Shown piece after piece: positions 13,290 to 22,918 of a stretch of 39,473 nucleotides of DNA. How positions within the stretch are numbered: position 1 is the stretch's first letter; each line of letters begins with the position of its first letter. Source of the DNA: Thermoanaerobaculia bacterium. GTDB lineage: Bacteria; Acidobacteriota; Thermoanaerobaculia; UBA5066. The DNA lies in the NCBI GenBank assembly GCA_039919545.1, contig JBDSFL010000342.1, positions 1 to 39,473 on the forward strand. The letters run 5' to 3'. Position numbers and translations under genes: made by a program. The notes under the pieces were generated by a model that did no database searches, was not told the origin of the DNA, and saw nothing but the letters and a program-made list of their open reading frames with translations.

Positions 13290-13868
13290 CTAGAGATCGA
13301 GGCCCAGGGCCAGCGCGTGAAACGTCAGGCCCGGGTTGATGTCGCCGAGCAGGCTGAGATTCGAGATGTGCACGTAGCGATAGCCCGCGCGCACCCGTCG
13401 ACCCGACGCCAGGCGATGCAGCAGCCAGAGCCCCCCCTGGTCGAAGAAATTCGCCCTCGAGCCCTGGGCCGGCACGCGATGGGTCGCATAGAAGAGCCCG
13501 GATCCCGCGTCCATCCGCACGTTCCACGCTCCGGCCGGAGGGCCGATGGTGAACGTGACGAGCAGCGCCGCGGCGACGGCGGGAACGGTTTCTCGGGACA
13601 GGTGATCCTCCCGCGTTTGATGGATCGCCAGCAGGGGATACAGCTCGACGGCACCCCCCAGATGCGAGACGAGCCGAAAGTCGCGCGCGAGGCCGGCCCC
13701 GGCGAACTCCGCGAAACGCTGTGACGCGGGGGCGAACGCCTGTCCCCCTTCCCCCTGGACGCGCCACCCCCTCGCAGAGGGGGTCTGATCCTGTGCCAGC
13801 AGCGGCGCGTCGAACGCGAGCGTAGCTCCCACCAGAGCCCCCAGAAGAATCGCGCTCCCTCGTGTCAT
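13290..13868 (-). CDS. PagL-like acyloxyacyl hydrolase / lipid A deacylase family outer-membrane protein
   Basis: ORF 13290..14066, trimmed to the ATG at 13868. Signal peptide MTRGSAILLGALVGATLAFDAPLLAQ. It is a small beta-barrel-like protein with an H-x-S-N motif near the C-terminus (YRYVHISNLSLLGDINPG), as in PagL-family proteins. The family call is from memory. Confidence 0.55.
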   Translation of the reverse strand: MTRGSAILLGALVGATLAFDAPLLAQDQTPSARGWRVQGEGGQAFAPASQRFAEFAGAGLARDFRLVSHLGGAVELYPLLAIHQTREDHLSRETVPAVAAALLVTFTIGPPAGAWNVRMDAGSGLFYATHRVPAQGSRANFFDQGGLWLLHRLASGRRVRAGYRYVHISNLSLLGDINPGLTFHALALGLDL

Positions 13869-13906
13869 CGCGGCGCGAGCGTAACCCGACATGGCATCCT
13901 GCGCCG

Positions 13907-14821
13907 ATGCCCGCCGCATCGTTCCGGCTTCCAGGAGCCAGCCTCTTCGTCGAGACGAACGAGGAACGGCTGCTCGTGCTGGCCCGGCGCCTCTGGGAGG
14001 AAACGGCGCCCGCCCCGCGCCGTGACGCCGAGCTCCACGCCGCGTGGACCGCCACGTCGGGGCCAAGACCCGAGCTCCTGCCCGAGCGGCGTCTGACGTG
14101 GACGCTCCTCCCCGAGGTTTACAGCGCCGAGATTCCGGGGCACCTGGCGGCGCGCATCACCTTCGAGCCCCCGAGCGTGGTCGGGGCCGTCTCGCTGTCC
14201 CTGCTCGAGGCATTTCCCTCGACCGTGGCGCGGTACCTCCTCGAAGCTCCGCTCGCGGCGCTGCTCGGCGCGCGCCGGCATCAGCCGCTGCACGCGGGAG
14301 CCGTGATCGGCCCACGCGGCGCCGTGGTCATCCGCGGCGGCTCGGGCGCGGGAAAATCGACGCTGGTGGCCGCGGCGTGGCAGGCGGGGCTGGGCGTGCT
14401 GGGAGACGAGAGCCTCCTCGTTTCGCGGGAAGATCCCGACGACCTCTCGTCCACCGTGCGGGATCTGACGCTGCTTCCCCACGCTGCGCGCCTGCTGGGC
14501 CTCGAGACGCTCTGCGAGCTCGCTTTCTCCGGAGGGGAAGAGAAGCGCCGCATCGATCTGTTTCCCGGAGCAACGCCCTCGGATCGCATCGCCCGGCGAC
14601 GCGCGACGGTGCTTCTGGGGCCGCGCACACCGGGTCCGGCGCGCCTCGTGCCCTTGACGCCGGAAGAGTTCGTCACGGAGTTCCGGCACGGTGAGATCCC
14701 GCAGGAGCGGGCGACCGGGAATCCGGATTTCGTCGCGCGCGCCTGGAGCGCCGCTCGCGCCTTTCGCCTGGAGGGTGCCCTGGACCTGCCTGGCGCCGTC
14801 AGTCTGATCGCCTCTCTCTGA
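13907..14821 (+). CDS. HPr-kinase-C-terminal-like ('HprK-related') P-loop protein
   Basis: ORF 13862..14821. I prefer the ATG at 13907 because the GTG at 13862 overlaps the divergent PagL-like start. The P-loop context PLHAGAVIGPRGAVVIRGGSGAGKSTLVAAAWQAGLGVLGDE resembles the HprK C-terminal domain and the HprK-related kinases found in RiPP-type and glycan-type clusters. The N-terminal 130 aa or so are unassignable. Confidence 0.6.
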   Translation: MPAASFRLPGASLFVETNEERLLVLARRLWEETAPAPRRDAELHAAWTATSGPRPELLPERRLTWTLLPEVYSAEIPGHLAARITFEPPSVVGAVSLSLLEAFPSTVARYLLEAPLAALLGARRHQPLHAGAVIGPRGAVVIRGGSGAGKSTLVAAAWQAGLGVLGDESLLVSREDPDDLSSTVRDLTLLPHAARLLGLETLCELAFSGGEEKRRIDLFPGATPSDRIARRRATVLLGPRTPGPARLVPLTPEEFVTEFRHGEIPQERATGNPDFVARAWSAARAFRLEGALDLPGAVSLIASL

Positions 14822-14855
14822 AGCCGCGAAGCACTGAAATATACTCGTCCCGGCG

Positions 14856-16379
14856 ATGAGCGGCACCCCGAACGCGGTTCCGAGGGTCTTGGTGGCCCAT
14901 TCGTACTATCTGAAGTACGACGCGAAGCAGACGCGGAAGATGAAGCCCTATCCGCCGCTCGCGACGCTCATCACCGCGGCGATCCTGAAGAAGGCGGGCT
15001 ACGAGGTGATCCTCTTCGACGCGATGCTCTCCGAAGGGGAAGAGGAATTCGAGCGCTTGCTCGAAGAGACCGCGCCCACGATCGTCGGGCTCCTCGAGGA
15101 CAACTTCAATTTCCTCACGAAGATGTGTACCACGCAGATGCGCGCGGCCGGCGCCCGGATGATCGCCGCGGCCCACGCGCACGGCTGCCGTGTGGCCGTG
15201 AACGGCTCGGACGCCACCGACCAGCCGGAGCTCTACCTCGCCGCCGGGGCGGACGCCGTGATCGCGGGCGAGACGGAACGGACCTTTCCGGAGCTGATCG
15301 CCGCGTGGACGAGCCATCCCGCGGGCGCGGACGATTCCCTCCTGAGGGCCCGGCTCCACGAGATCCGCGGCCTCATCCTCCCGCCCCCCGGCGGAGACGA
15401 CACTTTCCCCCCCACACACACGCCGCCGCGCGCGTTCGTGGAGGATCTCGACGCGCTGCCGCTCCCCGCGTGGGAGCTGGTGGACGTGGAGCGCTACCGC
15501 CGCGCCTGGACGTCCGCGCACGGACGCCTCTCGTGGAACATGGTGACGACGCGCGGCTGCCCGTACCACTGCAACTGGTGCGCGAAGCCTCTTTACGGCG
15601 TTCGCTATGCGCAGCGGGCGCCCGCCAGCGTCGCCGAGGAGCTGAGGCTCTTGAAGGAAAGCGTCGCCCCCGAGCACATCTGGTTCGCCGACGACATCTT
15701 CGGTCTCACGCCGCGCTGGATCGAGTCGTACGGCGAGGAGGTCGTGAAGCGCGGCGCGATGATCCCCTTCACGATGCAGTCGCGCGCCGACCTCATGAAA
15801 CCCTCGGCCGTTGCCGCGCTGGCGGCTGCAGGGGCCGAAGAGGTCTGGATGGGGGTCGAATCGGGCTCCCAGCAGATTCTCGACGCCATGGAGAAGGGAA
15901 TCCGCATCGAGCAGGTGAGGGAAGCCACGCGGCTGCTGCGCGAACACGGCATCCGCGCCTCCTGGTTCATCCAGCTCGGCTATCCAGGCGAGGAGTTCGG
16001 GGAGATCCTGGAGACGCGAGACCTCATCCGCGCCGAGCGCCCGGACGATATCGGCGTCTCCGTGTCCTATCCGCTTCCCGGCACGAAGTTCTACGAGCGC
16101 GTGAAGGAGCAGCTCGGCGCGCAGACGAACTGGAGCGATAGCGACGACCTCGCGATGATGTTCGAGGGAACGTACTCGGGACCTTTTTACCGCAAGGTTC
16201 GCGACCTGCTTCACGAGGAGGCCGCGCCGCATCCGGAGAGCGGGCGCGCCGGACGGTTGCAGGCGCTGGACACAGCCTGGCAGGAGCTCGCGGCGCACCA
16301 GGAGGAATACCGCTCGGCGCGTCCCACACCCGTCGCCGTTCTCTCGGACTCTGGCGCCCATCCCCTCGTCGCCGGCTGA
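14856..16379 (+). CDS. B12-binding-domain radical SAM enzyme (class B rSAM), copy A
   Basis: The N-terminal Rossmann-like segment VLVAHSYYLKYD...PPLATLITAAILKKAGYEVILFDAML is typical of the B12-binding-like domain. The rSAM cluster motif is RGCPYHCNWC (CxxxCxxC). Further rSAM core blocks include VWMGVESGSQQILDAMEKG. Length 507 aa. Confidence 0.85.
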   Translation: MSGTPNAVPRVLVAHSYYLKYDAKQTRKMKPYPPLATLITAAILKKAGYEVILFDAMLSEGEEEFERLLEETAPTIVGLLEDNFNFLTKMCTTQMRAAGARMIAAAHAHGCRVAVNGSDATDQPELYLAAGADAVIAGETERTFPELIAAWTSHPAGADDSLLRARLHEIRGLILPPPGGDDTFPPTHTPPRAFVEDLDALPLPAWELVDVERYRRAWTSAHGRLSWNMVTTRGCPYHCNWCAKPLYGVRYAQRAPASVAEELRLLKESVAPEHIWFADDIFGLTPRWIESYGEEVVKRGAMIPFTMQSRADLMKPSAVAALAAAGAEEVWMGVESGSQQILDAMEKGIRIEQVREATRLLREHGIRASWFIQLGYPGEEFGEILETRDLIRAERPDDIGVSVSYPLPGTKFYERVKEQLGAQTNWSDSDDLAMMFEGTYSGPFYRKVRDLLHEEAAPHPESGRAGRLQALDTAWQELAAHQEEYRSARPTPVAVLSDSGAHPLVAG

Positions 16380-16502
16380 CTCCCGGGCAGGCACGCCGTT
16401 TCGCACACCCTTCCTCCCGCGGTCCAGGCGTTCGGAAAGCTCGCGTCGCGTTTCGACGAGACCTTCTCACCCTGGCTCAGTGTCGCCGCGCAGCGCCGGG
16501 CC

Positions 16503-17243
16503 GTGCGTCGATCGCTGCTGCGCGCGTTTCCCGAGGGAGCGCGGCTCCTGGAGCTGGGGGGCGGAACGGGCGAGGACGCTCTGGCGCTGGCCAGGCAGGG
16601 GCGAAGGGTTCACCTCACGGACGGCTCTCCCGAGATGGTCGCGCATGCCGAGCAGAAGGTGCGAACGGCGGAGCTGACGGGCTTCGTGGCGTGCGAACGA
16701 CTCAGCCTCGAGGAGCTCGAAGCGTTTGCGGCTGCGAGGCAGACGGCGCATCAGCCGCTCTTCGACGGCTGCTTCTCGAACTTCGCGTCGCTCAACTGCG
16801 TCGAGGATCTCGGCGGGGTCGCGCGCGGTCTCTCGGCGCTCCTTCACGAAACTGCGCGCGCGCAGCTCGTGGTGTTCGGCCCCTGCTCTCCGGGCGAGGT
16901 CGCCACCTTGCTCCTGAAGGGGCGCTTCCGGAGCGCCTTCCGGCGGTTCTCGCGCCGTCCCGCCGCCGCGCGCGTGGCCGGGCACACGTTCACCGTGAGC
17001 TATCCCGCGCCCGCGGCCTACGCGCGAAGCTTCGCCCCCTGGTTCCGGCTCGAGCACATCCGCGGCATCGGTGTGCTCGTGCCCCCCAGCTCCGCCGAAC
17101 CCTTCATCTCCCGCCTTCCCGGGCTCCTCGCCCTGCTCGAAGCGGGCGACCGCGTCCTCTCCGCGCCGCTGGCGCTGCTGGGCGATCACGTGCTCCTGGA
17201 TTTCGTGCGGACGGACGCGCCGGCCGCCGCGGGGCGTTCGTGA
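16503..17243 (+). CDS. Class I SAM-dependent methyltransferase (MT1); 5' end problematic
   Basis: Motif I is ARLLELGGGTGEDALALARQGRRVHLTDGSPEMV. The first canonical start, GTG 16503, leaves only about 16 aa before motif I. The 41 in-frame codons upstream (16380-16502) are stop-free, look like a methyltransferase N-terminus (AFGKLASRFDETFSPWLSVAAQRRA) and run straight back to the TGA of the preceding gene in the same frame. Confidence 0.8.
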   Translation: MRRSLLRAFPEGARLLELGGGTGEDALALARQGRRVHLTDGSPEMVAHAEQKVRTAELTGFVACERLSLEELEAFAAARQTAHQPLFDGCFSNFASLNCVEDLGGVARGLSALLHETARAQLVVFGPCSPGEVATLLLKGRFRSAFRRFSRRPAAARVAGHTFTVSYPAPAAYARSFAPWFRLEHIRGIGVLVPPSSAEPFISRLPGLLALLEAGDRVLSAPLALLGDHVLLDFVRTDAPAAAGRS

Positions 17244-18043
17244 GCGCCTCGCCGCGCGAGCGTTATCTCGCTGCGTACGCGCAGCTGCGCGCGGGCGAGG
17301 GGCGCGGGGCCGGAGGCGAGGCCGAGCTGCTGGCGCTCCCCTATCTCACGACCGGTCCGCTGGCGCGACAGTGGGAAGTGCGCGCACGCACGTACGACCG
17401 CTTCGTCACGCGCGTGCTCTCTCCGCTCACGGCAAATCGCGGCCGTCCGCTCCGACTCGTCGATCTGGGGGCCGGGAACGGCTGGCTCTGCTACCGCGCG
17501 CGGCTGCTGGGCCATCGGGCGGTCGCATGCGATGTGCGCTGCGACACGGTGGACGGACTCGGGGCGGCGCGCCCTTACGCGCGCCACCTCCCGCGCCCTC
17601 TCGACGCGGTGGCCGCCACCTTCGAGGCGCTCCCGTTTCCCGCCCGCACCTTCGACGTCGCGCTCTTCAACGCGTCGCTGCATCACGCCGAAGATCTCGG
17701 CCGGGTGCTGCACGAGGCCGCCCGGGTCGTCGCCTCGGGAGGTCGCGTGGCGATCCTGGACAGCCCCTTCTATCGTCGCGCCGAAACGGGCGAGGCCATG
17801 GTGGAAGAGAAGAAGCGAAACACGGTTCAGAGGTATGCCGCGCTGGCCGACGACCTCCTGGCCCTTCCGTCCATCGAGTACCTCACCGCGCGCAGCTTGA
17901 AAGAGGCCGCGGGAAGCGCTCTCACGTTCCGGAAGCACCGCGTCACGTATCCGGCGTGGTACGAGCTGCGGCCGCTGAAGGCGCTTCTCACGCGGTCGCG
18001 CCCGCCGTCGCGCTTCGATCTCTGGGTGGCGGACGTGGCATGA
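17240..18043 (+). CDS. Class I SAM-dependent methyltransferase (MT2)
   Basis: Second half of ORF 16691..18043. The GTG at 17240 overlaps the MT1 stop (GTGA). Motif I is LRLVDLGAGNGWL, and the post-motif blocks are FDVALFNASLHHAEDL and ASGGRVAILDSPFY. Length 267 aa. Confidence 0.8.
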   Translation: MSASPRERYLAAYAQLRAGEGRGAGGEAELLALPYLTTGPLARQWEVRARTYDRFVTRVLSPLTANRGRPLRLVDLGAGNGWLCYRARLLGHRAVACDVRCDTVDGLGAARPYARHLPRPLDAVAATFEALPFPARTFDVALFNASLHHAEDLGRVLHEAARVVASGGRVAILDSPFYRRAETGEAMVEEKKRNTVQRYAALADDLLALPSIEYLTARSLKEAAGSALTFRKHRVTYPAWYELRPLKALLTRSRPPSRFDLWVADVA

Positions 18044-18056
18044 GACGGGTGCTCGC

Positions 18057-19124
18057 ATGACGCTCCTGGTGCCCGCCCCGGCCCCGGCTCCCGCGCGTGA
18101 ACAGGACGAAGCCCCCCCGCTCCCGCGCGTGGATCCGGTGACGCGCCTGCCGATCCTCATCCTCTTTCCGCACAACCGCTGTAACTGCCGCTGCCTGATG
18201 TGCGACATCTGGAAGGAACGCGCGCCGATGGAGATCTCCGCGGCGCACGTCGCCCCGTGGCTCGCCGAGTGGAAGGAGCTCGGCGTCTTGCGCATCGTCC
18301 TGACCGGCGGTGAGGCGCTCATGCACTCGCATCTCTGGCCGCTCTGCGACCTCTTCCGCGGTGCGGGGATCGGCCTCACGCTCCTGTCTTCGGGCCTTCT
18401 TCTGGCGCGGGATGCCGCCTCCATCGTCAAGGTGATCGACGACGTGGTCGTCAGCCTCGACGGGCCGCGCGACGTGCACGACGCCATCCGCAACGTGCCG
18501 CGTGCGTTCGACCGGCTCGTCGAGGGCGTCGCGGCGATCCGGGCTGCCGGGCCCGGTGTCTCGATCACGGCGCGTTGCACGGTGCAGCGCCGAAACGCGA
18601 CGCGGCTGTGCGACACGGTGACCGCCGCGCGCGAGGCCGGGCTGCAGCGCATCAGCTTTCTCGCGGTCGACGTGTCCTCCGAGGCCTTCAACCGCCCCGA
18701 CGGAATCGGGCAGGAATCCCCGGACTCGCTGGCGCTGCCCGAAAGCGAGCTGCCGGCGCTCGAGGCCGAGCTCGCGCGCCTCGAACACGTCCACGCCCAC
18801 GACTTCGCCAGCGGTTTCATCGCCGAGAGCCCCGGAAAGCTGAGGCGCCGTCTGCTGGACTATTTCCGGGCGATCGCCCTCGGCTCGGATTTTCCGCCGA
18901 ACGAATGCAACGCACCGTGGGTGTCGAGCGTGATCGAATCGGACGGCACCGTGCGCCCCTGCTTCTTCCAGCCCGCGCTCGGGAACATCCATCGTGCGGG
19001 AGGCCTCGCCGACGTGCTGAATTCCGAAACCGCGCGCACGTTCCGGCGCAACCTCGATGTGGCCACGGATCCCATCTGTCGGCGCTGCGTCTGCACGCTC
19101 AACCTGCGCGAGCCGGCCCCCTGA
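18057..19124 (+). CDS. Radical SAM enzyme with a SPASM/twitch-type C-terminal auxiliary-cluster domain
   Basis: The rSAM motif is NRCNCRCLMC (CxxxCxxC), with GGEALMH downstream. The C-terminal CNAPWVSSVIESDGTVRPC fits the SPASM CX9-15GX4C pattern and is followed by ICRRCVC. Confidence 0.85.
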   Translation: MTLLVPAPAPAPAREQDEAPPLPRVDPVTRLPILILFPHNRCNCRCLMCDIWKERAPMEISAAHVAPWLAEWKELGVLRIVLTGGEALMHSHLWPLCDLFRGAGIGLTLLSSGLLLARDAASIVKVIDDVVVSLDGPRDVHDAIRNVPRAFDRLVEGVAAIRAAGPGVSITARCTVQRRNATRLCDTVTAAREAGLQRISFLAVDVSSEAFNRPDGIGQESPDSLALPESELPALEAELARLEHVHAHDFASGFIAESPGKLRRRLLDYFRAIALGSDFPPNECNAPWVSSVIESDGTVRPCFFQPALGNIHRAGGLADVLNSETARTFRRNLDVATDPICRRCVCTLNLREPAP

Positions 19125-19158
19125 CGGCATCGAGCCCGGGTGATCGTCCCGTCAGGGG
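19118..19158 (+). promoter_or_regulatory. Perfect 10-bp inverted repeat (CCCCTGACGG ... CCGTCAGGGG) with a 21-nt loop, overlapping the stop of the SPASM gene
   Basis: Read directly: arms at 19118-19127 and 19149-19158. The loop contains a CCCGGG palindrome. It lies in the only gap over 100 nt inside the rSAM cluster. No U-tract follows. Its function (terminator, attenuator, processing site or protein-binding site) is unknown. Confidence 0.4.
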
Positions 19159-19235
19159 CGCGAGCACCGCTCGGGCATCGCCGGACTCTTCCGCCGCGGA
19201 CGGGCTGCCCGCCGAGCAGCCTAGAATGCGGCGTG

Positions 19236-20681
19236 ATGTCTCCCCCGCCGAGCCACAGCGGCGCTTCCCCCGCCCGGTCGCGCGTCGTCTTCTACAACCC
19301 GAAAGCGGTCTTCTTCACGATGCCGCTGGGCCCGCTCGCCGTCGCCTCGCACCTGGACAGGAGCCGCTACGATGTCGTCCTGATCGACGGCCGGCTCGAG
19401 GCGGATCCCGCTGGTGCGGTGGTCGATGCGCTCGAGGGCGCGCTCTGCCTCGGCGTCTCGGTGCTCACCGGGGCGCCGATCCACGATGCGGTGGAAGTCT
19501 CACGCGCGGCGCGCGCCGCCTATCCCGATCTCACGATCGTGTGGGGCGGGTGGCACCCGTCCCTGTTCGCCGCGGGCTGCCTGCAGGAAGCGAGCGTGGA
19601 CGTGACGGTGCAGGCGCAAGGGGAGGAGACCTTCGCCGAGATCCTGGAGCGGCTGCAGGACGGCCGCTCGCTCGAGGGGTGCGCGGGCTGCACCTATCGT
19701 GGGGTGGACGGCAGGCCCGTCCAGAACCCGCCCCGCGTGTTCTCCAACATCAACGGTTTCCAGACGCACGACTACGACCTCCTGCCCGTGGAGCGGTACT
19801 TCACGCTCAAGGGAAAACGGCAGCTCGACTACATCGCCTCCCAGGGTTGCTTCTTCCGCTGCGCTTTCTGCGCCGACCCCTACGTGTTCGGCCGGAAGTG
19901 GGTAGGGCTCGAGCCGGCACGTGTCGGCGAGGAGCTGGAGCGCCTCTGGCATCGCTATCACTTCGATGACGTGAACTTCCAGGACGAGACGTACTTCACG
20001 TACGCCGACCGCGTGGAGGCGATCGCCGACGAGCTGATCGACCGGAAGCTGCCGGTCTCGTGGGCGGCCACGATGCGGGCCGACCAGGGAGAGCGCCTGC
20101 CCGAAGAGGTGATGGCGAAATGCCGCCGCTCGGGGCTGCGCCGCCTGATCATCGGGGTCGAATCGGGCTCTCAAGAAACGATGGACCGCATCAAGAAGGA
20201 CATCAAGCTCGAGCAAGTTTTCTCGAGCGCCGAGAAGTGCGCGCGGCACGGCGTGGCGGTGAATTTCCCCTTCATCGTCTGCTTCCCGAACGAGAGTGAG
20301 GACAGCCTGCGCGCGTCCATCGAGGTCGCCAAGAAGCTGCGTGCGATGAGCCCGAGCTTCCAGACGCCCTTCTATTACTTCAAGCCCTATCCCGGGACGC
20401 CGATCACCGACGACGCGATCCGCGAGGGCTTCCAGCCGGCCGAGACGCTGGAGGAGTGGGCGAACTTCGACTGGTATCAGACGGGGCCCTGGGTGACCGA
20501 GGAACGCGAGCGCCTGATCGAGCGCTTCAAGTTCTACCAGCAGCTCGCCTTCGACCGTCCGAAGCCCTGGCAGCACACGCTGCAGCGGCTCGCGCGGTGG
20601 CGGTGCGCGAAGGATTTTTACCGGCTCCCGCTCGAGATGCTCGCGATGAACGCCCTCGCTCCCACCACGCGGCTCTCGTGA
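19236..20681 (+). CDS. B12-binding-domain radical SAM enzyme, copy C
   Basis: ORF 19140..20681. I prefer the ATG at 19236 (MSPPPSHSG...); the GTG at 19140 lies inside the hairpin loop. The B12-like N-domain reads VVFYNPKAVFFTMPLGPLAVASHL...GVSVLTG...IVWGGWHP. The rSAM motif is QGCFFRCAFC, with IIGVESGSQETMDRIKK downstream. Confidence 0.85.
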   Translation: MSPPPSHSGASPARSRVVFYNPKAVFFTMPLGPLAVASHLDRSRYDVVLIDGRLEADPAGAVVDALEGALCLGVSVLTGAPIHDAVEVSRAARAAYPDLTIVWGGWHPSLFAAGCLQEASVDVTVQAQGEETFAEILERLQDGRSLEGCAGCTYRGVDGRPVQNPPRVFSNINGFQTHDYDLLPVERYFTLKGKRQLDYIASQGCFFRCAFCADPYVFGRKWVGLEPARVGEELERLWHRYHFDDVNFQDETYFTYADRVEAIADELIDRKLPVSWAATMRADQGERLPEEVMAKCRRSGLRRLIIGVESGSQETMDRIKKDIKLEQVFSSAEKCARHGVAVNFPFIVCFPNESEDSLRASIEVAKKLRAMSPSFQTPFYYFKPYPGTPITDDAIREGFQPAETLEEWANFDWYQTGPWVTEERERLIERFKFYQQLAFDRPKPWQHTLQRLARWRCAKDFYRLPLEMLAMNALAPTTRLS

Positions 20682-20702
20682 GCCTGGCGTGAGCGTCGAG
20701 CC

Positions 20703-21395
20703 GTGAACGCGCTGGTCGGCTCGTTCTACCGGGTCGCCATGCCGTTCCAGCGCTTCGTGCTGAGGCGCCGCGTTCGACGGCTGACGATGGAAAATCTGGA
20801 CGGCCTCTCCATCGTCGTTCTCCCCGACGTCTTCAACGGCGTGGTCTTCCGTACCGGCGCGCTGCTGGCGCGAGCGGTGGGCGGGCACGCCGCGCGCGAC
20901 ACGAAGGCTCGGGCGCTCGACATGGGCACGGGAAGCGGCCTCGGAGCGCTCGCGGCCGCGCGGGTCGGGTACCGCGTGACGGCCGTGGACGTGAATCCCG
21001 AGGCCGTGCGCTGCACGCGCGTGAATGCGCTTTTGAACCGTCTCGAGGAGCGGGTCGAGGTGCTCGAAGGCGATCTCTTCGACGCCGTGCCTCGTCAAGT
21101 TTTCGATCTGATTCTCTTCAATCCCCCCTTTTTCGGCGGGGCACCCCGCGACCTTCACGACCTCTCGTGGCGCAGCAACGACGTCTTCCCCCGCTTCGTG
21201 GCGGCGCTCCCCTCCGCGCTGAAGACCGACGGGCTGGCGCTCGTCGTCCTCTCCACGCACGGAGACGCGGCCGGCCAGGCCAGCCTCCTGCTGACGGCTC
21301 CGTCCCTTTCGGTGCGCGCCGAGGTGGTGCGCCACTTCGGAAACGAGACGCTGACCGTCTATGCGGTGCGTCACGCGCCCGCGGCGAACGCATGA
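20703..21395 (+). CDS. SAM-dependent methyltransferase, HemK/PrmC-like 'MTS' type (MT3)
   Basis: Motif I is ALDMGTGSGLGALAAARVGYRVTAVDVNPEAV. The N-methyltransferase-type motif IV is DLILFNPPFF (an NPPY-like motif). Length 230 aa. Its stop overlaps the next start (ATGA at 21392-21395). Confidence 0.75.
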   Translation: MNALVGSFYRVAMPFQRFVLRRRVRRLTMENLDGLSIVVLPDVFNGVVFRTGALLARAVGGHAARDTKARALDMGTGSGLGALAAARVGYRVTAVDVNPEAVRCTRVNALLNRLEERVEVLEGDLFDAVPRQVFDLILFNPPFFGGAPRDLHDLSWRSNDVFPRFVAALPSALKTDGLALVVLSTHGDAAGQASLLLTAPSLSVRAEVVRHFGNETLTVYAVRHAPAANA

Positions 21396-22918
21396 GCGCG
21401 CGCCCGGTCCTCCTCGTCAACCCGCGCATCTGCTCGCCGAGGAACGCGCGGCTCCCTCTCTCGCTTCTTTCTCTCGGCGCTGTGCTCGAAGGGCGCCGCG
21501 AGTACGAGATCCTGGACGGGAACCTCGAGCCCGACCTCGACGGCAAAGTCCTCGCCGCCCTCGCGCGAACGCCGCATGCGCTCGTGGGCGTGAGCGTGAT
21601 GCCCGGCCCCCAGGTCGCGCCCGCGATCGCGGTCTCGTCCGCCGTGCGCGCGCGGTTTCCCGAGGTGCCGATCGCCTGGGGCGGCTACTTTCCCACGATG
21701 TACACCGAGGCCGCGCTGAACGCGCCGTACGTGGACTTCATCGTGCGCGGACAGGGCGAGGAGACGCTGCTCGAGCTGCTCGCGCGGCTCGACGAGGAGC
21801 CCGGGGCCTCGCCCGGCGCCGAGGCGGGATTCGCCGAGGTGACCGGCCTCTCGTGGAAGCGCGACGGCGTTTTCGTGCACAACCCCGAGCGGCGCTTCCG
21901 CCCGCCGGACGAGCTCCCCGCGCTCCCCTACGCACGGCTCGGCGACGTCACCCGGTATCTCGGGAAAACGTTCATGGGAGAGCGGACCGGCGTTCATCAG
22001 GCGGCCATCGGCTGCCGCTACCGCTGCGGCTTCTGCGGCGTCGTTTCCATGTTCAACGGCACCACGATCCTGCCGCGCCCGCGGCACATGGGCGACGCCG
22101 TACGCGAGCTGCGCGATCGCTACGGCGCCACCGGCATGCAGTTCTTCGACAACAATTTCTTCGATCGGGAGGAGAACAGCATCCCGGCGCTCCAGGAGCT
22201 GGCGGGGCTGGGAATGCCGTACTGGGTCTACGCGCGGGCGGACACGCTCGCCAATTTCTCCGCGTCGACCTGGGAGCTGGTCAAGGCGAGCCGGCTGCGC
22301 ATGGCCTACATCGGCGCGGAGGCCGCCAGCGACGACGTGCTGCGGAAGATGCACAAGGGCGCCCGCGTGGAGCACACGCTGGAGGTCGCCGCGCGCTGCA
22401 GGGAGAACGACGTCATCCCGGAGTTCTCGTTCGTCCTCGGAGGGCCGGAGGATGCCGAGGGGGAGATCGAGAAGACGCTGAACTTCATCAAGCGGGTGAA
22501 GGGTCTCCATCCCGCATGCGAGGTGATCCTCTATTTCTACACGCCCACGCCGCAGCGCGATCCCGCCGCGGCGCGAGGCGGGGCCGTCCTCCCGACGCAG
22601 GAGGCCTACGGGCCGACGGGGCTGGCGCTGCCCACGACGCCCGAGGAATGGACCGAGCCACGCTGGATCGAGTTCGTCTGCCATCAGGACGCTCCGTGGC
22701 TCACCGCCAGGACCCGTCAGCGCGTGAAGGATTTCGCGCAGGTCCTGGCGTGCCGCTTTCCCACGGTGCAGGACACGCGGACCCCGGCGTGGGGGCGCGC
22801 GGCGTTGAAGGGGCTGGCGTCATGGCGCTATGCGACCGGTGTGTACGCACGGCCCGCCGAGCTGGCCGCCGCGCGTCGCCTCATCCCGCTGCGTGAACCT
22901 CAGCGGGAAGGGCTCTGA
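21392..22918 (+). CDS. B12-binding-domain radical SAM enzyme, copy D (paralog of copy C)
   Basis: ORF 21167..22918, trimmed to the ATG at 21392 (MSARPVLLVNPRI...). The N-domain reads LPLSLLSLGAVL...GVSVMPG...IAWGGYFP. The rSAM motif is IGCRYRCGFC, with YIGAEAASDDVLRKMHKG downstream. Visible block-by-block similarity to copy C. Confidence 0.85.
   Translation: MSARPVLLVNPRICSPRNARLPLSLLSLGAVLEGRREYEILDGNLEPDLDGKVLAALARTPHALVGVSVMPGPQVAPAIAVSSAVRARFPEVPIAWGGYFPTMYTEAALNAPYVDFIVRGQGEETLLELLARLDEEPGASPGAEAGFAEVTGLSWKRDGVFVHNPERRFRPPDELPALPYARLGDVTRYLGKTFMGERTGVHQAAIGCRYRCGFCGVVSMFNGTTILPRPRHMGDAVRELRDRYGATGMQFFDNNFFDREENSIPALQELAGLGMPYWVYARADTLANFSASTWELVKASRLRMAYIGAEAASDDVLRKMHKGARVEHTLEVAARCRENDVIPEFSFVLGGPEDAEGEIEKTLNFIKRVKGLHPACEVILYFYTPTPQRDPAAARGGAVLPTQEAYGPTGLALPTTPEEWTEPRWIEFVCHQDAPWLTARTRQRVKDFAQVLACRFPTVQDTRTPAWGRAALKGLASWRYATGVYARPAELAAARRLIPLREPQREGL

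Follow-up and report, generated by a model that had tools for sequence, protein, structure and literature searches.

The subject of this analysis is the start of a methyltransferase gene, here called MT1, in a window of 39,473 nucleotides (nt; the whole stretch of DNA that was analysed, contig JBDSFL010000342.1 of a Thermoanaerobaculia bacterium). MT1 follows rSAM-A, a gene for a B12-binding radical S-adenosylmethionine (SAM) enzyme, and gene callers let it begin at GTG 16503. The N-terminus of MT1 would instead lie about 35 codons upstream of this annotated GTG, in a clade in which ATG, GTG and TTG are all absent as a start, and translation would begin at a non-canonical codon within positions 16389-16409. 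We give this reading a probability of about 0.5. The best candidate is GTT 16398-16400; to GTT specifically as the start codon we assign about one chance in three, and we infer both the codon and the efficiency of initiation from sequence comparison. The elements concerned are as follows (L016, L017 and L018 are the three loci most closely related to the window, L027 is the next lineage):

14856-16379, + strand: rSAM-A, B12-binding radical SAM gene, 507 amino acids (aa), Pfam PF02310 and PF04055; terminal TGA, with an equivalent TGA end in all 64 orthologous loci.
16376-16379, + strand: CTGA, the rSAM-A stop plus the preceding C; site of the NTGA overlap start in most orthologues, here with CTG out of the MT1 frame.
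16380-16397, + strand: probable untranslated spacer between rSAM-A and MT1, with a 4-nt indel relative to L016, L017 and L018 and an in-frame TGA in L018.
16386-16391, + strand: GGCAGG inside the spacer, a weak element resembling a Shine-Dalgarno (SD) sequence; pairing with the anti-SD sequence -6.5 kcal/mol.
16398-16400, + strand: GTT, putative and likeliest non-canonical start of MT1; invariant in four clade members and at the position of the L027 GTG.
16398-17243, + strand: MT1 as proposed, a class I SAM-dependent methyltransferase of about 281 aa, judged by orthologues of 272-285 aa, an AlphaFold2 model and Foldseek.
16410-16502, + strand: the conserved N-terminal 31 codons of MT1, LPPAVQAFGKLASRFDETFSPWLSVAAQRRA, omitted by gene callers; identified by the ratio of nonsynonymous to synonymous substitution rates (dN/dS), invariant columns and predicted helices.
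16503-16505, + strand: GTG chosen by gene callers (P0001, 246 aa); by homology, alignment and model it is Val42, in the middle of helix 3.
17240-18043, + strand: MT2, the next methyltransferase gene, with an ordinary GTGA overlap with the MT1 stop.

A preliminary description of this DNA had drawn attention to the junction, and re-reading of the sequence bore it out. The rSAM-A stop, TGA 16377-16379 in the frame of ATG 14856, shares its frame with GTG 16503, and the 41 codons between them, which translate to LPGRHAVSHTLPPAVQAFGKLASRFDETFSPWLSVAAQRRA, contain no in-frame stop and no ATG, GTG, TTG, CTG, ATT, ATC or ATA. At the 70% G+C of the window a run of 41 stop-free codons is expected by chance with P ~0.46, so the openness of the stretch is uninformative by itself. 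The absence of all seven start-like codons over the same length has P ~0.05 from base composition and P 0.001-0.009 at the codon frequencies of neighbouring genes.

The same description had suggested that the second half of the peptide resembles the N-terminal helix of class I methyltransferases, and that a start at GTG 16503 would leave unusually few residues (about 16) before the GxGxG motif. The resemblance proved real and can be put more strongly, and the upstream codons do belong to the methyltransferase. When the extended frame of 287 aa was compared with 5.8 billion proteins it matched hundreds of class I methyltransferases of 272-285 aa at 93-98% coverage. The N-termini of the orthologues consist of M or V and 3-12 variable residues, followed by the conserved pattern LPPAVRAFDALA..FD..F..W.SVAAQRRAVRR..L..FP.GA.LLELGGGTGEDAL, to which the window offers the matching N-terminal sequence ...HTLPPAVQAFGKLASRFDETFSPWLSVAAQRRAVRRSLLRAFPEGARLLELGGGTGEDAL. 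Residues 11-41 of the 41-codon stretch align with this conserved N-terminus, and an alignment of 52 orthologues has eleven invariant columns upstream of GTG 16503 (A14, A17, F18, A22, D26, F29, W32, S34, V35, Q38 and R39). The codon taken as the start by gene callers is therefore Val42, and the true start lies upstream of it.

Structure prediction agrees with the alignment on which it was based. The AlphaFold2 model of MT1 has a mean predicted local distance difference test score (pLDDT) of 94.7 and a predicted template modelling score (pTM) of 0.91. Residues 1-10 are disordered in it (pLDDT 53), and helices 13-20, 22-29 and 33-49 are predicted at a pLDDT of about 95 or more; GTG 16503 cuts the third of these mid-way. 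Foldseek matched the model to 2avn at 1e-16, to CmoM 8joz at 5e-15 and also to 4htf, and the sequence of CmoM (8joz/4htf, the closest solved relatives) aligns from the N-terminal helix of MT1 onward. The protein carries the SAM-binding motif ELGGGTG, matches Pfam Methyltransf_25, 23, 12 and 11, and has a predicted Rossmann-like class I fold.

The upstream codons are under strong purifying selection. Between the window and L016, L017 and L018 the 31 N-terminal codons at 16410-16502 gave a dN/dS of 0.06-0.14 with a dS of 0.78-1.09, and between L016/L017 and L018 a dN/dS of 0.14-0.23 with a dS of 0.65-0.90. For the remainder of the gene all clade pairs gave 0.18-0.24 (dS 0.39-0.96), the comparisons of the window with the three relatives falling at 0.20-0.24. 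Codons 11-41 are true coding sequence of MT1 under purifying selection, and the gene for this class I SAM methyltransferase is intact. Low dN/dS in a clade that has no canonical start means that the N-terminal region has been translated throughout the divergence of the clade, which argues against an assembly artefact confined to the window, against a recent nonsense mutation and against a functional truncated enzyme.

Orthologous loci came from three sources: related genomes, metagenome and genome collections, and the contigs on which the closest proteins are encoded. The nearest relatives are the metagenomic contigs L016 (P0002, 77% identity), L017 (P0003, 79%) and L018 (P0004, 76%). Nothing closer turned up: protein-based scans of metagenome and genome collections gave 59 loci, none closer than ~65%, the exact DNA pattern CCTCCCGCGGTNCAGGCNTTCGG had no match in the metagenome or genome contig collections, and 63 genomes of the family contained no closer relative. 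A search with the rSAM protein found the contig of L016 as the sole further member of the clade. The maximum-likelihood tree was ((window,L018),(L016,L017)) with support of 100/98-99, and L027 was placed as the sister lineage with support of 90-97. Gene callers shorten the methyltransferases of this clade in other members too: P0003 begins at VAAQRR and P0004 at LELGGG.

The comparison within the clade accounts for the in-frame TGA of the window. The rSAM gene ends in ...HPLVAG-TGA in all four members. Measured against the rSAM frame, that of the methyltransferase is shifted by +1 in L016, L017 and L018. The DNA after the stop aligns as TGA-C-TC----CCG-GGCAGG in the window, TGATCTCGCTCGCGGCAGG in L016/L017 and TGACCTCGGTCGCTGAAGG in L018; in other words the window is 4 nt shorter than its relatives just past the rSAM stop. 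Given that L018 is the sister of the window, the +1 arrangement is the older state, from which a 4-nt deletion produced the common frame of the window. Read from this alignment, the in-frame TGA of the window is a by-product of a deletion in an untranslated spacer, and the in-frame state is not conserved.

The same alignment limits where MT1 can begin. Upstream of the conserved methyltransferase region L017 is devoid of canonical starts. The only one in L016 is a TTG that precedes the conserved LPPAV codon by 72 nt and is not found in L017, and L018 has an in-frame TGA of its own eight codons ahead of LPPAV, directly before an AGG codon. The sole indel between GTT and LPPAV measures 3 nt and the indel upstream of AGG measures 4 nt. 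From the indel sizes and the TGA of L018 it follows that the DNA upstream of AGG behaves as an untranslated spacer and that from GTT onward as a reading frame. This boundary puts the start of MT1 within AGG CAC GCC GTT TCG CAC ACC (16389-16409), a segment without any canonical start codon or any other start codon of translation table 11.

The wider family shows what is usual at this junction. All 64 orthologous loci have the same B12-binding radical SAM gene, ending in TGA, directly upstream of the methyltransferase gene, and none of the 64 has the two genes fused. A separate methyltransferase is therefore the rule, as one outcome allowed for in the preliminary description, and an in-frame TGA is not kept even in the three closest relatives. 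The distinct junctions, 51 in number, were of the following kinds:

GTGA with GTG in the methyltransferase frame: 17 of 51.
ATGA with ATG in the methyltransferase frame: 14 of 51.
CTGA with CTG in the methyltransferase frame: 5 of 51.
TTGA with TTG in the methyltransferase frame: 4 of 51.
Methyltransferase in another frame, with its own ATG or GTG from a few to ~35 nt past the stop: 7 of 51.
No canonical start: 4 of 51 (the window, L016, L017 and L083).

L018 was too short for this census and behaves like L016. An NTGA overlap with NTG in the methyltransferase frame is thus present at 40 of the 51, and the CTG of the window, at 16376, is out of the MT1 frame. Such a -4 overlap of stop and start has been linked to translational coupling (PMC10666635, PMC12548453). 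L022, one of the seven junctions with a separate start, has its methyltransferase in frame with the rSAM stop like the window, but there an ATG follows 24 nt past the stop; three further contigs, L087-L089, have a spacer of 19-23 nt and then ATG. Orthologues of the same short length, beginning at an equivalent GTG behind a non-conserved spacer, were not found, and the anomaly at the junction stands, with a non-canonical start as its best explanation.

Several members of the family appear to use unusual starts or to have replaced them. L006, L008, L021, L030 and L063 have CTGA with an in-frame CTG and no canonical start before the LPP..AF motif, and the CTGA-group proteins P0098, P0116 and P0117 have been shortened by gene callers. 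The TTGA group falls inside the CTGA junctions in the tree, which is why CTG seems, on the sequences, to be an overlapping start of long standing in the CTGA group. In L083 (G059:C216), some 15 nt ahead of the LSPAIRAF codons, a strong GGAGG (anti-SD pairing -11.7 kcal/mol) is followed after 6 nt by CTG. This CTG is the sole plausible start and falls on the ATG when orthologues such as P0030 (MTAPALPPAV) are aligned. In L002 (G012) and L080 (G067) the GTGA/ATGA overlap is kept, but a 1-nt indel within the variable leader has taken it out of the methyltransferase frame. The apparent replacement start is a GTG that lies in frame 9 nt ahead of LPAAV, so the leader tolerates a change of frame where a new start is available. 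A crude census of the source genome (G000), counting confident open reading frames (ORFs) that end in TGA and have a coding-looking ORF in the frame of the NTG, gave A 187, G 165, C 127 and T 47, with 28 CTGA cases lacking a canonical start within 15 codons downstream; C and G being common third-position bases, these counts become interpretable only with homology-based start calls.

Within the segment 16389-16409 the GTT triplet stands out. It is invariant in the window, L016, L017 and L018, at -15 from the LPPAV codon in the three relatives and at -12 in the window. In L027 a GTG occupies -15, with no other canonical start ahead of the conserved N-terminal region, and the GTT of the clade would descend from this GTG. 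A Ser codon follows GTN in L027, in the window and in L016/L017 (GTG TCC ACG CGC GCT/CTT against GTT TCG AAC TCG TCT/CTC), the clade differing from L027 by an insertion of 15-18 nt between TGA(N)CTC and the GTN codon. In AGG CNC GNC GTT the two sites that vary are each the second base of a codon, and none of the four third bases varies. In the gene body 38.6% of third positions do not differ among the three lineages, which gives ~0.02 for four in a row (calculated post hoc), and GTT makes up 5.1% of the Val codons of the genome. The sequences suggest that the invariant third positions and the rarity of GTT fit a constraint at the nucleotide level better than one at the protein level. The odd starts elsewhere in the family, with five distinct in-frame CTGA junctions and the SD sequence and CTG of L083, count in favour of a non-canonical start as well.

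A possible mechanism would then be the following. Ribosomes that terminate at the UGA of rSAM-A, 18 nt upstream, would help initiation at GTT, as may the weak SD-like GGCAGG 6 nt upstream of it, and the 18 nt between TGA and GTT would form an untranslated spacer.

A number of points weigh against this proposal. The argument from third positions was made post hoc. The SD-like elements 6 nt upstream of GTT (GGCAGG or GAAGG) pair at -5.3 to -6.5 kcal/mol, which 27-40% of random 20-mers reach; the value of -6.5 kcal/mol for GGCAGG of the window is reached by 27%. In Escherichia coli codons outside AUG, GUG, UUG, CUG and AUH initiate at 0.01-1% of AUG (bioRxiv 10.1101/063800), and in E. coli and Haloferax reinitiation is much reduced 14-23 nt past a stop (PMC10666635); the distance from the stop to GTT is 18-22 nt. 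The homology of GTG and GTT depends on L027, a single outgroup on a long branch, and the clade comprises only three independent lineages. That GUU is a genuine initiation codon, kept by selection in a biosynthetic methyltransferase of a Thermoanaerobaculia-like clade of Acidobacteriota, is accordingly a tentative proposal which we hold at clearly less than even odds.

It is conceivable, if unlikely, that some other mechanism brings ribosomes into the MT1 frame, either initiation at a near-cognate codon (AGG 16389 or CTC 16380) or a frameshift from the out-of-frame CTG of CTGA. AGG is the same in all clade members and in L018 comes straight after the TGA, CTC follows the rSAM stop in the MT1 frame in all four sequences, and CTGA is conserved. 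In L018, however, the TGA lies between CTC and AGG, and AGG initiates very poorly in E. coli (bioRxiv 10.1101/063800). A programmed shift was considered and rejected: no slippery heptamer is present, and from the CTG frame a shift of +1 would be required in the window and one of -1 in L016, L017 and L018. The related candidate of a frameshifted CTG start, reading MTPG and then, after a +1 shift at CCCGGG, RHAVS..., was discarded on similar grounds: the relatives need a -1 shift, no slippery site is present, and the string itself is due to the 4-nt deletion.

It is quite unlikely that GTG 16503 or another internal codon is the sole start of MT1, giving a shortened functional enzyme and leaving the upstream 41 codons untranslated. 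GTG 16503 is the first canonical start and was picked by gene callers for P0001, and the relatives P0003 and P0004 were treated likewise. The 31 upstream codons nevertheless have a dN/dS of 0.06-0.14 at synonymous sites near saturation and hold eleven residues invariant in the family. They form helices 1 and 2 and half of helix 3 at a pLDDT of ~95 or more, and CmoM (8joz/4htf) aligns from this N-terminal helix. The truncated but functional methyltransferase considered in the preliminary description cannot easily be reconciled with strong selection on codons that form core helices.

We consider it improbable that a normal start was lost through a very recent mutation in this genome or through an error of sequencing or assembly; a 1-nt insertion in CCCGGG behind an overlapping CTG/ATG start, giving MTPG joined to RHAVSHTLPPAV, would be one such case. 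In favour of an error, the source is a fragmented metagenome-assembled genome (710 contigs, 81% complete). The CTG frame, moreover, reads L-T-P-G and after a +1 shift continues R-H-A-V-S-H-T-LPPAV, which resembles the N-termini of orthologues such as MTPGRTVSTLPAAV (P0020). Against this, the lack of a canonical start and the GTT are both shared by three other independent assemblies of the clade. The offset of the CTG from the methyltransferase frame is not the same in the relatives (11 against 7 nt), from which it follows that the window does not descend from a sequence with CTG in frame. The 4-nt deletion relative to L016/L018 accounts for the ACTCCCGGG string, and P0020 comes from a different subclade. 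With a canonical start absent throughout the clade and the N-terminus under selection, an error or a recent nonsense mutation, as had been suggested, is an unnecessary and improbable explanation of the junction.

Read-through of UGA 16377, by a near-cognate tRNA or by insertion of selenocysteine (Sec), would produce an rSAM-A::MT1 fusion of ~795 aa and so offer a route to the N-terminus of MT1. The stop is in frame and no start codon follows it. Stops in the UGA-C context are comparatively leaky in E. coli, and UGA-C is the context found in the window. The genome also encodes homologues of selA (421 bits) and selB (302 bits), both above the NCBIfam cut-offs. The selA/selB homologues and the Rfam tRNA-Sec match lie at:

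G000:C150:19701-21035, - strand.
G000:C306:4662-5852, + strand.
G000:C649:11043-11130, + strand.

No tRNA-Sec was found among the 46 tRNAs detected by ARAGORN in the 81%-complete assembly, and the sole Rfam tRNA-Sec match above threshold is a tRNA-Ser(CGA) according to ARAGORN. Flags of one internal TGA in the call sets of the genome matches proved to be terminal stops and not internal TGAs. Downstream of the TGA neither folding of 60 nt against 200 shuffles nor Rfam revealed a Sec insertion sequence (SECIS) or another stimulatory structure, in agreement with the earlier impression that no convincing SECIS-like hairpin is present: the 60 nt fold worse than shuffled sequences (z = +1.67, with 193 of 200 shuffles folding at least as well) and Rfam gave no match.

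Comparative evidence also tells against read-through. The rSAM TGA is +1 out of the methyltransferase frame in L016, L017 and L018, where the N-terminus is equally conserved, and the common frame of the window derives from the 4-nt deletion in the spacer. TGA is the main stop of the genome, ending 68% of confident ORFs. Taken with the absence of fusions at all 64 loci, each with a stop-terminated rSAM gene and a separate methyltransferase gene, these observations speak against the interrupted fusion that had been entertained and make both programmed read-through and Sec insertion at a TGA of non-conserved position very improbable. Incidental read-through of UGA-C at a low level may give a little fusion protein as a side effect of the deletion.

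A gene that starts at GTT has a partial precedent in Streptomyces sigR, for which a GTC start was proven by experiment and which has GTT at this position in S. griseoflavus and S. griseorubens (Feeney et al. 2017, PMC5472188). The weak start of sigR, checked by initiation factor 3 (IF3), sets the ratio of sigma to anti-sigma factor (PMC5472188). MT1 is like sigR in coming from a high-G+C bacterium, in having a GTY at the start position that is kept across a clade, in lacking a canonical start and in being mis-called by gene finders. It differs in that the ribosome-binding site of sigR is very strong (AGGAGGTG) and its start proven, whereas the SD-like element of MT1 is weak and its proposed start was deduced from sequence. 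Moreover, sigR is the first gene of its pair, and MT1 would begin 18 nt after an upstream stop.

Three other known systems share some features with the junction. Near-cognate starts (AUU/AUC of infC; CUG and AUH) likewise use a codon other than AUG, GUG and UUG and are missed by annotation pipelines. Their output is low and they are probably checked by IF3. GUU, in contrast, differs from AUG at two positions and is outside the starts of NCBI table 11. Coupled gene pairs with a -4 NTGA overlap (Huber et al. 2019/2023, PMC6728339, PMC10666635; review PMC12548453) share the CTGA retained in the window, but there this CTG is not in the MT1 frame, and the stop precedes the likely start by 18 nt, a distance beyond the typical reinitiation range of -8 to +10 nt. 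The in-frame UGA followed by an open, coding-looking frame recalls programmed read-through and Sec genes, from which the junction differs in having no SECIS or other structure, no conserved frame relation and no fused homologues or homologues with Cys or Sec aligned.

rSAM-A, MT1 and MT2 belong to a cluster of eight genes on the + strand at 13862-22918, which comprises three B12-binding radical SAM genes, one SPASM radical SAM gene, three class I methyltransferase genes and a gene for an HprK-related protein. The remaining members are:

13862-14821, + strand: HprK-related protein (P-loop).
18057-19124, + strand: SPASM radical SAM protein.
~19140-20681, + strand: B12-binding radical SAM protein.
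20703-21395, + strand: methyltransferase MT3.
21392-22918, + strand: B12-binding radical SAM protein, with an ATGA overlap.

No gene for a precursor peptide or substrate is obvious in the cluster. The gene order is common to L016, L085 and L088, and L016 also has an EgtB-like gene upstream.

MT1 is best described as a gene that annotation pipelines have shortened and that has a non-canonical start codon, probably GTT, and so as a case of a known but rare kind. The public calls P0001, P0003 and P0004 lack 35-50 N-terminal residues, among them invariant positions and two and a half helices, and models, expression constructs or family profiles built from them would be wrong. The junction also illustrates how a TGA followed in frame by open sense sequence can arise as the by-product of an indel in a spacer. 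If the proposal is true, MT1 would provide a rare natural GTY start kept across a clade, and, after sigR of Streptomyces, the second gene family that naturally starts at GUY; GUU could then keep the output of MT1 low relative to that of the upstream radical SAM enzyme. At one and the same junction the family would display ATGA, GTGA, TTGA and CTGA overlaps, separate ATG or GTG starts, an SD sequence with CTG and, if confirmed, GTT. Such variants would form a natural series on start-codon stringency in coupled genes, bearing on how strict the choice of a start codon is beside a terminating ribosome and on the tuning of enzyme ratios within an operon.

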